DNA of 64,000 nucleotides from an archaeon (GTDB lineage: Archaea > Iainarchaeota > Iainarchaeia > Iainarchaeales > JAAZKV01): assembly GCA_041653195.1 (NCBI GenBank), contig JBAZFU010000002.1, positions 23,639-87,638 of the forward strand, read 5' to 3'. Every line of letters begins with the position of its first letter. Within the stretch, counting starts at the first letter, position 1. Below are positions 1,882 to 63,954 of this stretch, one piece after another. The notes beneath the pieces are model-generated. The model worked only from the letters and a program-made list of their open reading frames with translations. It was not told the DNA's origin and searched no databases. The position numbers and the translations under genes were made by a program.

Positions 1882-2646
1882 ATGGAAACAAAAATAAATT
1901 TCAAAAACTCGAACGGGTTAAGGCTTTCCGGAATATTGTCGGTTCCAAAAGCAAAAAACCCGCCGATTGTTATTCTGTGCCACGGGCTTAGTGCCACAAA
2001 AGACAGCAGAAAAAATCTTGCACTACAAAAAATACTTGAAAGAAACTATATCGCATCTTTTCGTTTCGATTTTTTCGGACACGGCGAAAGCGAAGGAAAC
2101 TTTTCAGAAATCACTGTAAGCGAAGCGGTTGATGATACGCTTAACGCAATTAAATTCGTTAAAACAAAAGGATTCAAAAAAATCGGTTTATGCGGAACGA
2201 GCTTCGGCGGGATAACCACTCTGATGGCGGCTTCAAAAATAAAAAACTTGTTCGCATTAGTTGCGATTTCACCCGTATCAGACTGGCAAGAAAAGGAACA
2301 ATCAAAGCGTACGCCGAGAGGTTTGAAGGAATGGCAGCAAAAAGGATTTATCAATTACAGAAAATGGTCCGGAGAAGACGCTCAATTAAATTACTCGTTA
2401 TACGAAGATTCAAAAAAACACCTTGTGTATGATGTTGCAAAAAAAATTAAGACTCCTACATTAATCATTCACGGCACACAAGACGAAAAAGTTCCAATAG
2501 AGCAAAGCAGAAAAACCGCAAAACTTATTCCTGATTGCGAGCTTAAAGAAATTTCTGGCGGAGACCACGAGTTTTCTAACAAAAATGATTTCAACGAAGT
2601 GATTCGCTTAGCTTCCGATTTTCTAATTCAAAAAGCGCGTAATTAA
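1882..2646 (+). CDS. Alpha/beta-fold hydrolase (dienelactone hydrolase / S9 peptidase-like)
   Basis: Oxyanion-region HG motif ILCHGLSATKDS, nucleophile elbow GTSFGG (GxSxG), and later HGTQDEKVP and GGDHEF (acid and His of the triad). Confidence 0.8.
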   Translation: METKINFKNSNGLRLSGILSVPKAKNPPIVILCHGLSATKDSRKNLALQKILERNYIASFRFDFFGHGESEGNFSEITVSEAVDDTLNAIKFVKTKGFKKIGLCGTSFGGITTLMAASKIKNLFALVAISPVSDWQEKEQSKRTPRGLKEWQQKGFINYRKWSGEDAQLNYSLYEDSKKHLVYDVAKKIKTPTLIIHGTQDEKVPIEQSRKTAKLIPDCELKEISGGDHEFSNKNDFNEVIRLASDFLIQKARN

Positions 2647-2727
2647 TTTTCGCCACCAAGCAAAAGCCAAAGCTTTTGCGGAATGTGATGCCCTGCAGGG
2701 CACCACAGCCTTTTTCGAAAAAGGCTG
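2647..2727 (-). repeat. Composite three-hairpin element copy A, 3' of the 2789..3637 gene in its sense orientation
   Basis: ttttcgcc (2647-2654); hairpin GCAAAAGC-caaa-GCTTTTGC (2660-2679); 14-nt palindrome TGCCCTGCAGGGCA (2689-2702); 22-nt perfect palindrome CAGCCTTTTTCGAAAAAGGCTG (2706-2727). It is collinear with 9023..9112. Confidence 0.75.
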
Positions 2728-2788: not shown

Positions 2789-3637
2789 CTACTTCAAGTA
2801 TTCAAGAGTATTCCTGAACACACCTGGTGAGAGACCAGGGTCGTAGTTAAAGTAAACAACTTTTCCTGTCGGGAAGCTTTTCTTCTCGATTATTGCAGGG
2901 TAAGCTTTTGGAGTCATTTCGCTCTTTATAAAAGCGATTGTTTTTGCTCCTTCAGCAGCCTGAACAGGATAAACAACTAACGAATATGGCGGCTTATCGC
3001 CGGGAGGACTCATTGGTATTCCCATCATTATAGGGTGGTCAATGTCCTGTCTCCAAATTCTTCCAACAACAGTTTCTCCTTTTCCTTCGGAGCAAGTAGG
3101 AATGCTGTCCTGGTCAAGCGGACAATCAGCAGGAATTATATCCCCGAAAGTCGCTTTCCAACCAACAACATCAACTGCGGTTAATCCCATTAAACCAACA
3201 TCCTGGTAAATTCCGGAGTTTTGAACAACAATAAGTTTTCCGCCTTTCTTAACATAAGTTTCAACCGCTTTTCCAAGCGCAGTAGTAACGCTTTTGCTCG
3301 GAGAAGTTGACTGGTCAAGTATTACTATATCATACTGAGAAAGCTCTTCTTCGGCACCAAAGTAAAAAGTACTCGGGTCTCTTGTAACGTAAGTCAAAAG
3401 GTCGCCGCTGTTATCAAGAGTAACTTTTTCTCCAGCAGAAGGGTTTCCTATAACTAAAACTTGAATGTGCCCTTCGTTCTGAGGCAAGTAAGGCAGTGTA
3501 ACCACCCCAAAATAGTTCAAAGAAAGAATACCTATTACAACTAGAATAATTAACGGAATCAAACCTTCTAAATTGAAATTCATGCCTCTTCTACCTCCAC
3601 CAGCAGGAGCAACATCAGCGCCTTCATCAGGATACAT
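2789..3637 (-). CDS. Membrane-anchored hypothetical protein (single N-terminal TM, extracellular globular domain)
   Basis: 282-aa ORF with TM segment LIPLIILVVIGILSLNYFGVV. It shares its layout with the next gene (YDIVILDQS...KKGGKLIVV versus YKLVIVENA...QNGGRLVWI, and a C-terminal V.Y..Y.P motif). Confidence 0.6.
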   Translation of the reverse strand: MYPDEGADVAPAGGGRRGMNFNLEGLIPLIILVVIGILSLNYFGVVTLPYLPQNEGHIQVLVIGNPSAGEKVTLDNSGDLLTYVTRDPSTFYFGAEEELSQYDIVILDQSTSPSKSVTTALGKAVETYVKKGGKLIVVQNSGIYQDVGLMGLTAVDVVGWKATFGDIIPADCPLDQDSIPTCSEGKGETVVGRIWRQDIDHPIMMGIPMSPPGDKPPYSLVVYPVQAAEGAKTIAFIKSEMTPKAYPAIIEKKSFPTGKVVYFNYDPGLSPGVFRNTLEYLK

Positions 3638-8082: not shown

Positions 8083-8155
8083 TGCGAAGCCTTTTTGCCA
8101 GCCTTTTTATTAAAAAACCAACTCGTTTTTCGCCGGCCTTTTATAAAAAGGCCGA
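8083..8155 (-). repeat. Composite hairpin element copy T1, abutting the 3' end of tRNA-Ile(UAU)
   Basis: The minus strand directly after the tRNA discriminator reads TCGGCCTTTTTATAAAAGGCCG-GCGAAAAAC...AAAAAGGCTG-GCAAAAAGGCTTCGCA. The hairpin is at 8134-8154. The 20-mer 8083-8102 is identical to 573-592. Confidence 0.7.
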
Positions 8156-8229
8156 TGGGCACGGGCGGATTCGAACCGCCGACGCTTAGTGTATAAGACT
8201 AATGCTCTACCAGGCTGAGCTACGCGCCC
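8156..8229 (-). tRNA. tRNA-Ile, anticodon UAU
   Basis: Hand-folded 74-nt cloverleaf: GGGCGCG-TA-GCTC-AGCCTGGTA-GAGC-A-TTAGT-CTTATAC-ACTAA-GCGTC-GGCGG-TTCGAAT-CCGCC-CGTGCCC-A. Anticodon loop is CTTATAC. CCA is not encoded. Confidence 0.85.
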
Positions 8230-8365
8230 AGCTGTCACGTCAGCTGGCAACGTGCCGGCTTGCGCTCTGCTTAGCCGGCTTGCCTCGCTTTGCTCGGCAA
8301 ATCTTAACAAAATTTAGCAAAAAGAGATTTTAAAAGGTTGTTTCTTTGAAAAATCGGGCAGAACT

Positions 8366-8938
8366 TCAATTATTTAGTTCGTCAGAAATCAATTGCTTGG
8401 TTTCAAAAACCGCGCGCGCCAAATCATCATTAACTACTGCATGGTCAAACTCGTCCGCGCGAGAAAGTTCTTCACTTGCAATGCTCAGACGCTGCTCGAT
8501 TGTTTGCTTACCGTCCTTGCTTCGCTTCTCCAATCTTTCCCTAAGCGATTCAAGGCTCGGAGGTTTCACAAAAATAGTGATGGCTTCCGGAAACTTTTGT
8601 TTAATTGTTTTTGCACCCTGAACATCAACGAGCATCAAAATGCTTTTGCCGGAATTTATCACGTTTTGAACATCCTTTGCAAGGCTTCCGTAATAGTTTC
8701 CATAAACGGTCGCGTGCTCAAGAAACTCGCCCTTTGAAACAAGCTCCTCAAATTTTTCCTTGGAAAAAAAATTGTAATCGACACCGTTCTGCTCGCCTTC
8801 GCGCGGAGCGCGCGTCGTGCATGTAACTATTCTCTGAAAAAAAGGAAGTTCCGAAAGGACCGCATCTGCGATTGTTGTTTTTCCGACGCCAGAGGAGCCC
8901 GTAATAACAAAAAGTTTTCCTTTTTTTGTTTCAGGCAT
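8366..8938 (-). CDS. gmk: Guanylate kinase
   Basis: P-loop GSSGVGKTT, TTRAPREGEQNGVDYNF, and the conserved YGNYYG and LE.RL pattern of guanylate kinases. Confidence 0.9.
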   Translation of the reverse strand: MPETKKGKLFVITGSSGVGKTTIADAVLSELPFFQRIVTCTTRAPREGEQNGVDYNFFSKEKFEELVSKGEFLEHATVYGNYYGSLAKDVQNVINSGKSILMLVDVQGAKTIKQKFPEAITIFVKPPSLESLRERLEKRSKDGKQTIEQRLSIASEELSRADEFDHAVVNDDLARAVFETKQLISDELNN

Positions 8939-9022
8939 GCAGAAAAGAAAATAGAAAAAGAATAAAAACAGGCTGGAAAAAACCCAACTTAAAAATCAGG
9001 TTTTTGTCAGTTTTGTTAAAAA

Positions 9023-9112
9023 ATGCCGAGGGCATTTTCGCCGCTAAGCAAAAGCTCGTGCTTTTGCGAAGCATGACACCCTGCAGGGTGCCATGGCCTT
9101 TTTTAAAAGGCC
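9023..9112 (-). repeat. Composite three-hairpin element copy B, immediately 3' of the thermosome gene
   Basis: Hairpin ATGCC-gag-GGCAT (9023-9035); ttttcgcc (9035-9042); GCAAAAGC-tcgt-GCTTTTGC (9048-9067); palindrome CACCCTGCAGGGTG (9077-9090); GGCC-T6A4-GGCC (9095-9112). It is collinear with copy A and differs from it by paired substitutions in the stems. Confidence 0.75.
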
Positions 9113-9121
9113 GAGGCTGAA

Positions 9122-10750
9122 CTACATCATATCTTCGCCGCCCATTCCGCCCGGAGGCATCATGGAACCTTTCTTCGAAGAACCGAGAATGATATCATCA
9201 ATTCGCAAAATCATTTCAACAACTTCTTCAGCCGCATTGATTGCCTGTGTTTTTACCGCAAGAGGCTCCAAAACTTTCGCGCCTTTCATATCCTCGACTT
9301 TTCCTGCATAAACATTTATTCCGAAAGTTGCGCCGCCTTTCTGCGCGTGCTTGCTTCTCAATGAAACAAGAGCATCAATCGGATCCATTCCAGCGGTTTC
9401 TGCAAGAGTTCTTGGAATTATTTCAAGCGCTTCGGCAAATGCTTCTATTGCGAGCTGTTCCCTTCCGCCGATTGTTTTTGCGAAGTTTCTCAATTTCACA
9501 GCCACATCCATTTCGCAGCTTCCCGCACCCGTTAAAATTTTTCCCTGTCTTACGGCCGCAGAAATTGCGCCGATTGCATCAATCATTGCGCGCTCAGCTT
9601 CATCAATCACATGATCGGTTCCGCCCCTTATCAAAACAGAAACGCTTTTTGGATTCTTACAGCCTTCAATGAAAACCATTGCATCGCCTGCAACTTTTTT
9701 CTCATAAATTTTTCCAGCGTGCCCCAAATCACTTGAGGAAAGTTCCTTCATGCTGGTGACAACGGAAGCGCCGGTAGCTCGAGCAAGAGCATCCATATCG
9801 GATTTCTTAACTCTGCGAACCGCGACTATTTTTTCCTTCGCCAAATAATGCTGCGCAACATCGTCAATTCCCTTCTGAGTAAAGACTGCGTTTGCACCGC
9901 TCTTCTTTATCATTGCAACCATATCTTTCAGCATCTTTTCTTCCTGGTCAAGGAAAGCCTGTAACTGTTCAGGAGAATTAATTTCAATCTTTGTGTCATT
10001 CTCGGGTTCTTTCACCTCAAGCGCAACATCAAGCAAAGCAATTTTTGCATTCGAAATATTTTTCGGCATAGCCGCGTGAACAATCTCCTTATCAATAACG
10101 ATTCCGCTTATCAACACAGTATCGTTCAAAGAAGCGCCGGTCTTTTTCTCCAGCTTTATGTTATCGTGATCAATAACTGTTTTTGTCCCGTCTGTTTCCG
10201 CAACGCTTGAAACGGCTTCAACAACAATTTTGGAAAGCTTGTCTGCGGCTTCAGCGGCCTTTCCGGTCATCGAAGTCATCGCAATGGTTTCCAAAGTTTT
10301 TTTGTCCTTAAATGTTACGGGCTCCGCAATATCCTCATAATATTTTTTCGCTTTCTCAGAAGCGAGCCTATAACCGTTAATTATAACGCTCGGATGAATA
10401 CTATCATCCAACAATTTCTCTGCTTTTTCTAACAGCGTTCCGGCAAGAACAACAACAGTAGTGGTTCCGTCGCCGACTTCCTCGTCCTGAGTTTTTGCAA
10501 CATCAACCAACATTTTCCCAACAGGGTGTTCAATGGCCATTTCGCTCAGAATAGTTGCGCCGTCATTCGAAATTGTGACGTCACCCAAATCATCAACAAT
10601 CATTTTGTCCATTCCCTTCGGACCCAAAGTACTTTTTACCGCCTGTGCAACCGCACGCGCAATAAGAATGTTTACACGCTGGGCATCCCGTCCCCTTGTT
10701 CTCTTACTTCCTTCGTTCATAAACGCGTTATTTTGTTCCTGTTCAGCCAT
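9122..10750 (-). CDS. ths: Thermosome subunit (group II chaperonin)
   Basis: 542 aa with [25 protein letters not shown] and the C-terminal GGMGGEDMM tail typical of thermosomes. Confidence 0.95.
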
Positions 10751-33181: not shown

Positions 33182-33246
33182 GAAGCCAACAGGCTTCATT
33201 CCTCCTGCTGAAGGAGGATTTTCGCCAGCCTTTTGCCAAAAGGCCG
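33182..33246 (-). repeat. Composite hairpin element copy C in a divergent intergenic region
   Basis: The minus strand reads TCGGCCTTTTGGCAAAAGGCTG-GCGAAAA-TCCTCC-ttcagca-GGAGGA-at-GAAGCC-tgtt-GGCTTC. The first stem closes with a G.U pair on the minus-strand RNA only (an A.C mismatch on the plus strand). Confidence 0.6.
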
Positions 33247-63596: not shown

Positions 63597-63669
63597 TAGC
63601 CCCGCCCAGATTTGAACTGGGGTCTCAGGCTTCAAAGGCCTGCATCCTTGGCCACTAGACGACGGGGCT
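63597..63669 (-). tRNA. tRNA-Gln, anticodon UUG
   Basis: Hand-folded 73 nt: AGCCCCG-TC-GTCT-AGTGGCCAA-GGAT-G-CAGGC-CTTTGAA-GCCTG-AGAC-CCCAG-TTCAAAT-CTGGG-CGGGGCT-A. It has the A1-U72 pair typical of archaeal tRNA-Gln. Confidence 0.85.
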
Positions 63670-63766
63670 CAACTGCTCGCCCAGTTGACATGCGGGCAGC
63701 ATCTTCGCTTTCAGCTCGATGCAGCATGCTTCGCATGCGAGCTAATTGGAATATTGGGAAAGATAA

Positions 63767-63774
63767 TTTATAAA
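63767..63774. promoter_or_regulatory. Palindromic TATA box TTTATAAA between divergent tRNA-Gln and tRNA-Ile(GAU)
   Basis: It ends 28 nt upstream of tRNA-Ile(GAU) position +1. In the opposite direction it would start a ~70-nt leader ahead of tRNA-Gln. Confidence 0.4.
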
Positions 63775-63801
63775 ATCTCTCACACCAATATTTTTGCCCA
63801 T

Positions 63802-63873
63802 GGGAGGGTAGCTCAGTGGTGGAGCACACGACTGATAATCGTGAGGTCGGGAGTTCGAGCCTCCCCCTTCCCA
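63802..63873 (+). tRNA. tRNA-Ile, anticodon GAU
   Basis: Hand-folded 72 nt: GGGAGGG-TA-GCTC-AGTGGTG-GAGC-A-CACGA-CTGATAA-TCGTG-AGGTC-GGGAG-TTCGAGC-CTCCC-CCTTCCC-A. Confidence 0.85.
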
Positions 63874-63874
63874 T

Positions 63875-63954
63875 CAGCCTTTTTGCGAAAAAGGCTGGCG
63901 AAAAAATGTTGACGAAAAACGAATGCCTTTTTGCGAAAAAGGCTGGCGAAAAAA
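63875..63954 (+). repeat. Composite hairpin element copy T2 (two tandem units), abutting the 3' end of tRNA-Ile(GAU)
   Basis: CAGCCTTTTTGCGAAAAAGGCTG-GCGAAAAAA starts one nt after the discriminator. The 30-mer gcctttttgcgaaaaaggctggcgaaaaaa occurs at 63877-63906 and again at 63925-63954. Confidence 0.7.

Follow-up and report, generated by a model that had tools for sequence, protein, structure and literature searches.

Among described repeats, the repetitive extragenic palindromes (REPs) and bacterial interspersed mosaic elements (BIMEs) come closest to the elements reported here. Their palindromes are short and imperfect, and a conserved word adjoins the stem. With tens to hundreds of copies per genome, they are confined to intergenic sequence or 3′ untranslated regions (UTRs), point either way, join other short motifs in mosaic or tandem clusters, and turn over rapidly between relatives; the roles proposed for them, in mRNA-end stability and transcription attenuation, are comparable to those considered below. 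Our subject is a family of hairpin cassettes with these same features in a DPANN archaeon of the order Iainarchaeales, whose genome (871 kb in 25 contigs, 40% G+C, 89% complete) includes the 64,000-nucleotide (nt) stretch C2:23639-87638, called the window; positions without a contig name (C1, C2 and so on) count from its first letter. Two elements in the window, A (2647-2727) and B (9035-9114), are rare, genus-restricted three-hairpin mosaics of this family, collinear as an earlier note on the window had described them. Extragenic palindromes and mosaic clusters are found, as in REPs and BIMEs, but no cognate RAYT (Y1 transposase) was found. The cassettes also differ in their DPANN host, in stems made of a T-run and an A-run, and in a tight link to tRNA ends, tRNA introns and rRNA spacers, and their core is conserved across phyla whereas REPs are species-specific.

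Other known systems share part of this profile. Archaeal oligo-U terminators, often with consecutive U-tracts, have been established by Term-seq in Sulfolobus, Methanosarcina, Haloferax and Methanococcus. The cassettes resemble them in placing T4-T7 right after tRNA 3′ ends and stop codons, with T5 or longer after gene 3′ ends, and one direction has two U-tracts within 12 nt; unlike such terminators, however, the cassette U-run is buried in a conserved stem, and copies also occupy obligatory read-through positions inside transcripts, gene 5′ ends and divergent spacers. Introns and pre-rRNA spacers processed at bulge-helix-bulge motifs are comparable in that seven cassettes form the first helix of an intron at tRNA position 37/38 and one lies within the 16S-stem loop, but the cassette is not that motif, ~50-100 nt separate its 3′ arm from the central helix, and copies also stand beside protein genes and away from any splicing context. 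The unit of ~29 nt, a palindromic hairpin with an 8-nt purine-rich tail ending in GAAAA, recalls a CRISPR repeat, yet there are no unique spacers of 30-40 nt, the spacers of tandem copies are identical and 19-21 nt long, cas genes were neither examined nor noticed in the vicinity, and most copies are solitary at gene boundaries. Miniature inverted-repeat transposable elements (MITEs) are known in archaea, for example the Sulfolobus SM elements and haloarchaeal PATEs. Like them, the cassettes are small multi-copy elements that encode no protein, form hairpins and are present in some relatives but not in others; unlike them, they have a much shorter conserved unit (25 nt) without defined terminal inverted repeats or target duplications, no parent insertion sequence was found, and the core is kept beyond the species. 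Viewed as a structured RNA family, they show helix-supporting covariation and match no curated covariance model.

Composites A and B and the cassette family

The core unit reads (GCGAAGC)-N-TTTTCGCC-R-GCC-T3-9-loop-A3-9-GGC-Y, where GCGAAGC often stands before TTTTCGCC; on the opposite strand the hairpin comes first and is followed by GGCGAAAA. A pattern scan of the genome returned 63 oriented (T)TTTCGCC-N-hairpin copies, and 74 under a looser definition, all but one of them outside open reading frames, in intergenic or intronic sequence. The dispersed family of structured repeats that the earlier note had suspected is thereby borne out at ~63-74 copies, far more than it listed. Since the exact pattern TTTCGCCRGCCTTTT..AAAAGGC matches 45 times in the genome and its reversed control not at all, the family is not a chance pattern; among intergenic 7-mers, only TATA-type words are more enriched than TCGCCAG, CCAGCCT and GCCAGCC. 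GGCGAAA is followed by the complementary TTCGC within 40 nt in 32 of 116 occurrences (most control words 3-7, TTCGG 14), an excess that makes it usually the first arm of a second small hairpin. The word GGCGAAAA recurs in arrays with a period of 13-15 nt, and both it and GCGAAGC serve as linker motifs in mosaic clusters. Cassette arrays lie at C2:380-600, C3:77939-78090 and C17:9743-9998, and inverted pairs flank tRNAs. Tandem copies have a 48-nt period.

On the plus strand A and B share the order TTTTCGCC, a 5-nt linker NCNAA, hairpin 1 (hp1, GCAAAAGC-loop-GCTTTTGC), a GCGAAGC-like linker, hp2 centred on CCCTGCAGGG, and hp3 (R-GCC-Tn-loop-An-GGC-Y). Copy A is a type-1 composite, with no strand assigned, between the convergent genes 1882-2646 (plus) and 2789-3637 (minus). 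Its TTTTCGCC (2647-2654) lies directly 3′ of the TAA stop (2644-2646) of the former, and is followed by hp1 (GCAAAAGC-CAAA-GCTTTTGC, 2660-2679), hp2 (TGTGATGCCC-TGCA-GGGCACCACA, 2684-2707, including an A·C/G·U position) and hp3, the core hairpin (AGCCTTTTT-CG-AAAAAGGCT, 2707-2726; AGCC-T5-CG-A5-GGCT). Copy B, likewise unassigned to a strand, is a type-1 composite plus a small extra hairpin and spans 9023-9114 in all. The extra hairpin (ATGCCGAGGGCAT, 9023-9035; T6 comes after it on the minus strand) precedes TTTTCGCC (9035-9042), hp1 (9048-9067) with its GCGAAGC linker, hp2 (CATGACACCC-TGCA-GGGTGCCATG, 9072-9095) and hp3 (GGCCTTTTTTAAAAGGCC, 9095-9112; GGCC-T6-A4-GGCC), which lies 9 nt downstream of the thermosome stop codon (9122-9124, minus strand). 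Against dinucleotide shuffles, the plus and minus strands of A fold at z = -3.6 and -3.9 and those of B at -4.3 and -6.1, respectively; 0-1 of 200 shuffles folded as well.

Substitutions in the core hairpin preserve its pairing. Apart from a few exceptions, an A-T or a G-C pair closes the stem (Fisher p = 9e-8 for this genome, 2e-6 for the sister species, 5e-26 for other genomes). In ~14 hairpins orthologous between this genome and the sister species, six show double compensatory changes, two show G·T wobbles and none is disrupted; examples of double changes are GGCC/GGCC to AACC/GGTT in the 5′ flank of tRNA-Cys, a change in the 3′ flank of tRNA-Ile, and A-T to G-C in the tRNA-Gly intron. Loops and run lengths drift freely. 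Across the five known type-1 composites, 12 stem positions of hp1 and hp2 covary without a mispair, a count that rests on five copies and includes some whole-module swaps. Among these composites, hp1 GCAAAAGC is replaced by GTCCCC and the upper hp2 CACCC by CAAAAC, and the exchanged modules recur in a second composite type (C1:39776, C5:20921 and C7:32222). Because hp1 and upper hp2 are exchanged whole, part of the covariation signal reflects mosaic recombination. The compensatory differences that the earlier note saw between A and B are real (TGCCC/GGGCA versus CACCC/GGGTG; AGCC/GGCT versus GGCC/GGCC), but its conclusion that they mark selected structure stands only in part, as some of this change is the swapping of whole hairpins and not stepwise substitution. 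The A·C mismatch of hp2 on the TTTTCGCC strand is a G·U on the GGCGAAAA strand in 5 of 5 composites, which from the sequence hints at RNA in the thermosome sense for B. Wobbles of the core closing pair favour the TTTTCGCC strand 14 to 5 (p = 0.06), so that the two sets lean opposite ways and the strand evidence is mixed.

A Pfam search of the flanking genes identified an α/β hydrolase (1882-2646, plus strand), whose TAA stop touches the TTTTCGCC of A, and, on the minus strand, the thermosome (9122-10750) next to hp3 of B and a guanylate kinase (8366-8938); the minus-strand gene 2789-3637 was assigned no function. A does lie past the stop codon of that last gene, as the earlier note had it, but at a distance of 61 nt, with a separate minus-strand hairpin of 12 bp and then a T-run (2764-2728) in between, and its TTTTCGCC end abuts the plus-strand stop. 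This separate hairpin and T-run look like the terminator of the minus-strand gene. A resemblance of A to a C/D-box small RNA (GUGAUGC...CUGA) was set aside, as it is not kept in the other four composites.

The four simpler relatives listed in the earlier note all contain genuine core units, at 583-606, 8128-8152, 33220-33244, and 63877-63903 with 63925-63951. On the plus strand, 583-655 holds simple units that read GCGAAGC-C-TTTTTGCC-AGC-T7-A5-GCT, then further TTTTTCGCC and a hairpin (core C2:24221-24244). The plus-strand unit 8128-8152 (TTTCGCC-GGCC-T4-AT-A5-GGCC) places its hairpin 1 nt from the 3′ end of tRNA-Ile(UAU) (8154-8230, minus). The unit at 33220-33244 (plus) lies in a divergent spacer with a TATA-like box ~20 nt past the hairpin, and the sister species has none in this spacer. 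Two tandem minus-strand units with the 48-nt period (63877-63951) begin 1 nt past the 3′ end of tRNA-Ile(GAU) (63801-63875, plus); read on the tRNA strand each is a hairpin and then GGCGAAAA, and the first is kept in the sister species.

Placement beside RNA and protein genes

The strongest placement rule, obtained with a tRNA annotation that included intron-containing tRNAs, is that the hairpin side of the cassette faces the RNA gene and the TTTTCGCC/GGCGAAAA side points away. In ~27 units the hairpin stands 0-4 nt from a tRNA 5′ or 3′ end, four tRNAs (tRNA-Pro, tRNA-Arg, tRNA-Ser and tRNA-Trp) have cassettes on both sides, and seven introns at the canonical position 37/38 open with a cassette. 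At 13 tRNAs the TTTTCGCC-hairpin is flush with the 5′ end, which leaves no space for a canonical TATA box in between; these have none at -45 to -20, and the spacing of TTTTCGCC to tRNA +1 ranges from -24 to -31. At tRNAs with a 3′ cassette the first run of T4 or more falls at +3 to +7, inside the hairpin, and in 12 of these 14 tRNAs it is T5 or longer; tRNAs that lack a cassette have a plain T-run at the same +3 to +7 position.

Protein genes have cassettes in both orientations. The hairpin lies 3-10 nt past the stop codon in four cases, B among them, and TTTTCGCC lies 0-41 nt past it in ~7, one of which is A with respect to the hydrolase gene. Elsewhere the hairpin is 11-19 or 50-85 nt before a start codon, with a normal TATA box beyond it, and ~9 copies sit in divergent (head-to-head) spacers. 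Between genes that run in the same direction, the TTTTCGCC-then-hairpin direction prevails by ~16 to 6-8. The T-run is T5 in A and T4 in B on the thermosome sense strand. With 5′, 3′ and intron-start placements and both orientations at protein genes, the expectation that the elements always follow genes in the sense orientation fails.

Several copies are found where read-through is obligatory. The rRNA operon lies on the minus strand of C11 (16S 5193-3710, tRNA-Ala(UGC) 3320-3248, 23S 3004-51). Each of the two rRNAs is enclosed by a processing stem that its flanks form, and the duplex energy is -37.7 kcal/mol for 16S (shuffles, -19.3 ± 3.5) and -35.2 for 23S (shuffles, -15.9 ± 3.4). The sole TATA-like word of the rRNA leader is upstream of the 16S stem. 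Counted in the 3′ direction from the 5′ strand of this stem, a cassette with a T5 run (C11:5315-5341) follows after 33 nt, a position that places it within the pre-16S RNA; a second one, with a T6 run (C11:3217-3244), directly adjoins the spacer tRNA-Ala at its 3′ end. The sister species has kept both. Cassettes are transcribed at least in the rRNA leader, the rRNA spacer and tRNA introns, and all 9-11 copies in obligatorily transcribed spacers present the hairpin and then GGCGAAAA in the RNA sense (p = 0.004-0.001). A block of ~80 nt upstream of the 16S stem region (within C11:1-5600) is near-identical in the sister species.

The earlier note had regarded a terminator role as plausible. T-runs at tRNA 3′ ends and past stop codons fit it, but copies with T4-T6 inside the pre-16S leader, the 16S-23S spacer and seven tRNA introns weaken the plain version. 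The direction never seen in transcribed spacers reads U4-CGCCRGCC-U5-6, often with further UUUUCGCC repeats before it. A polar terminator is possible but unproven, and it conflicts with the 13 tRNAs that carry exactly this direction flush at their 5′ ends and have no canonical TATA at -45 to -20. A scan for bacterial-type terminators left the cassettes unflagged and found no enrichment (16 found, 15.7 expected).

A promoter role does not suit the cassettes in general. Promoters in this genome use canonical TTTAAATA-type boxes; upstream of protein genes the TATA box lies past the hairpin and is kept in the sister species where the cassette is missing; and the spacing to tRNA +1 varies. Only at the 13 tRNAs whose 5′ end is flush with a copy is such a role tenable. 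The idea of a gene cassette with an inverted element at either end was rejected for the thermosome, which has no element upstream. Loss of RNase P was likewise rejected as the cause of the tRNA 5′ hairpins: RNase P RNA went undetected in this assembly, most likely through an assembly gap, since the genome is 89% complete and relatives have one (the sister species and 31 of 38 family genomes). Since relatives have RNase P RNA, one expects tRNA 5′ leaders that undergo processing. No cassette flanks the RNase P RNA gene of the sister species.

Some further features of tRNA genes and of spacers stand out. Approximately 11 tRNA genes have long introns (60-120 nt) at the canonical 37/38 position, most of which begin with the hairpin-GGCGAAAA cassette (C1:129238-129407, C1:132760-132921, C4:5596-5751, C7:11883-12062, C7:39606-39788, C15:6642-6837, C1:105812-105942 and others), and the 3′ ends of long introns (..GCAATTA|G, ..GGAGTTA|G) are able to form, together with the anticodon loop, the pairing of a bulge-helix-bulge motif. 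Many tRNA 5′ flanks share a hairpin NNATC-GAGC-loop-GCGAA-GATNN, whose tandem G·A-type internal loop resembles a K-turn or loop E: those of tRNA-Val (C1:127277), tRNA-Gln (63597-63669, minus), tRNA-Ala (C11:3248), tRNA-His (C7:41276), tRNA-Cys, tRNA-Trp and tRNA-Ser (C17). In six of these flanks a second hairpin, CAACTG-loop-CAGTTG, ends flush with tRNA +1, and the 5′-flank hairpins together suggest long structured 5′ leaders. The divergent tRNA-Gln and tRNA-Ile(GAU) genes (spacer 63670-63800) share one palindromic TATA-like box, ATAATTTATAAAAT, which precedes tRNA-Ile by ~35 nt and tRNA-Gln by ~95 nt, the latter distance implying a structured leader of ~70 nt for tRNA-Gln. Three of the cassettes ahead of protein genes are followed by a third motif, GACCGGCAYGRAAC.CT.AAAAGGGTTT (C1:4017-4046, C1:152588-152617 and C1:114633-114662). 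The sister species has kept this motif where the cassette is absent, and a small regulon may use it as a promoter or regulatory site.

Turnover and wider distribution

Alignment of syntenic spacers with the whole genome of the sister species showed that 19 of 33 lack any core there. The spacer of B is among them, its ortholog being a plain A/T-rich stretch with T-runs, and two of three type-2 composites have no core at the corresponding site. The A/B architecture exists in exactly five copies, two here and three in the sister species, all at non-orthologous sites, and in none of 194 other genomes of the order. The sister-species alignments show no clean boundaries or target duplications; whole spacers are replaced. 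Cassettes on the tRNA and rRNA sides are mostly kept between the two species, and those beside protein genes are gained and lost. Further out, other genera have a different hairpin 1-2 nt past the end of the spacer tRNA-Ala, and the tRNA-Ser(GCU) 5′ cassette is found in two genera. An arrangement with a hairpin flush with the tRNA is thus kept while the sequence turns over, which argues for a role at the RNA level, at least beside tRNAs. A RAYT/IS200 origin was rejected: a search for the Y1/RAYT transposase (PF01797) gave no match in the 89%-complete genome, the incompleteness of which leaves some doubt, and controls were matched in 6 of 14 genomes. In a metagenome relative, one joint skips 8980-9137 and would remove B, but its 26-nt side is too weak to count.

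Matches to the exact pattern number 45 and 31 in the two genomes of this genus versus 0-8 elsewhere in the order. The exact core is also present in Iainarchaeum (including AR10) and in Micrarchaeota, Pacearchaeota, Woesearchaeota, Altiarchaeota and Undinarchaeota metagenome-assembled genomes, often adjoining tRNAs. Some Clostridia carry it as AAAGTTTTCGCCRGCCTTTTTCAAAAGGCYGCGGG, with arrays of GC-rich hairpins after it. The 25-nt core TTTTCGCC-R-GCC-T4-6-N-A4-GGC-Y heads these REP-like arrays in genomes of Oscillospiraceae and Butyricicoccus, at 12-43 copies per genome, with 12 in the isolate Butyricicoccus pullicaecorum DSM 23266 and 43 in one Clostridia metagenome-assembled genome (reversed control 0). 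There TTTTCGCC usually lies 2-35 nt past a stop codon and that end faces the gene 3′ end in 23 of 30 classifiable cases, and the A-T/G-C covariation of the closing pair holds as well. Plasmid and phage databases gave one unannotated plasmid match to the Clostridial version. Among sequencing runs, this organism turned up in DNA metagenomes only, and neither it nor AR10 reached a usable level in any RNA run. Rfam searches of the window, B and one Clostridial copy at gathering and E-value thresholds returned no family for the element; at the gathering score the window matched tRNAs only, and the best E-value-threshold matches on B were far below the cut-offs. In the full-text literature the motif strings match unrelated primers only, and nothing relevant was found on REPs in DPANN or on Iainarchaeota tRNA introns.

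What the cassettes may do

The explanation that we favour, tentatively and at slightly less than an even chance, is that the cassettes are REP/BIME-like modular hairpins that, within transcribed spacers and UTRs, mark off or protect the ends of RNAs, possibly with a polar U-tract terminator. They fill spacers, leaders, trailers, introns and UTRs, the discarded or untranslated parts of transcripts, and they multiply, shuffle modules and turn over like bacterial REP and BIME repeats. As autonomous folding modules they may delimit, insulate and protect RNA ends, aiding processing beside tRNAs and 3′-end stability past stop codons. Read as TTTTCGCC and then the hairpin, the U-tracts (U4-CGCCRGCC-U5-6) probably terminate archaeal transcription, and polymerase would pass in the other direction. 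The thermosome mRNA would then cross hp3, hp2, hp1 and GGCGAAAA of B and end at the next hairpin and U6. Copy A could provide the hydrolase gene with a U-tract terminator or a 3′ UTR; alternatively, for the minus-strand gene, it could be a structure that is read through.

Several observations weigh against this explanation. Each of its functional steps is one that we infer from sequence, and the wobble pairs single out no one strand. The promoters of the 13 tRNAs with a flush 5′ TTTTCGCC-hairpin are unexplained if that direction terminates. High turnover at protein genes suits a neutral or selfish repeat equally well, and template switching can keep the symmetry of a DNA palindrome in the absence of selection on RNA. 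Moreover, the conserved single-stranded TTTTCGCC/GGCGAAAA word and the Clostridial copies suggest a sequence-specific partner outside the model.

If the turnover is taken at face value, the cassettes could be purely selfish or neutral REP/MITE-like palindromes that gather where they are tolerated, keep their symmetry by DNA-level mechanisms and serve no host function. We consider this unlikely, although presence or absence differs in 19 of 33 syntenic spacers, copies have expanded in this genus (45 and 31 versus 0-8), tandem arrays and shuffled modules occur, the five A/B-type copies occupy non-orthologous sites, and Clostridia have comparable repeat families. The 89%-complete genome shows no Y1/RAYT-type transposase and the insertions show neither clean boundaries nor target duplications; the core is kept over order and phylum distances beside tRNAs in many DPANN lineages; tRNA-side cassettes are orthologously kept with compensatory changes; and both the strict orientation in transcribed spacers and the different hairpin that other genera hold at the tRNA-Ala end speak for more than tolerance. 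Termination by itself is the next alternative. As factor-independent bidirectional archaeal terminators, a reading of the terminator role raised in the earlier note, the cassettes would halt RNA polymerase at gene ends through oligo-T in either arm, and T5-T7 runs are indeed present on both strands, the hairpin T-run takes the place of the plain T-run at tRNA 3′ ends, and several cassettes lie 0-35 nt past stop codons. However, T4-T6 copies inside the pre-16S leader, the rRNA spacer and seven tRNA introns, ~9 copies in divergent spacers and 13 flush with tRNA 5′ ends make this improbable; a stop in the first arm would preclude the RNA hairpin, yet the pairing is conserved, and the bacterial-type scan flagged no cassettes (16 versus 15.7 expected).

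The invariant single-stranded 8-mer beside a covarying stem may instead mark a recognition site, hairpin plus 8-nt tail (GGCGAAAA/TTTTCGCC), for a dedicated protein, be it an RNA-processing endonuclease, an RNA binder or a DNA-binding or recombination protein. Arrays of GGCGAAAA with a 13-15-nt period, hairpins flush with processing sites, the identical motif across DPANN phyla and in Clostridia, and a shape that recalls the hairpin and 8-nt handle of a CRISPR repeat are in its favour. We give it the smallest share of probability, as no candidate protein was identified, T-/A-runs and loops differ in length by up to 8 nt, more than is usual for a double-stranded DNA protein site, the sister species lacks a cassette beside its RNase P RNA gene, and CRISPR-like spacers of normal length are lacking. 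A broader version, to which we also attach little probability, holds that hairpin and TTTTCGCC/GGCGAAAA form a recognition module for a factor that reads the hairpin with its single-stranded tail (an RNA nuclease or binder, or a single-stranded DNA recombinase) and is common to many DPANN and, via horizontal transfer, some Clostridia. In DPANN it would define the excision of tRNAs, tRNA introns and rRNA spacers, and A, B and the protein-gene copies would be spill-over into mRNA UTRs.

DPANN genomes are minimal and have hardly any DNA to spare, yet in this one a single cassette takes up much of the ~94 kb of intergenic sequence. If the cassettes shape RNA 5′ and 3′ ends, as in the explanation that we favour, they would represent an undescribed layer of archaeal RNA maturation and would also be of practical use in annotation, as markers of where transcripts begin and end in uncultured archaea. 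That REP-like repeats of gut Clostridia contain the same 25-nt core poses a question across domains, namely whether a shared factor, horizontal transfer or convergence lies behind it; this is directly approachable in cultivable bacteria such as Butyricicoccus pullicaecorum.

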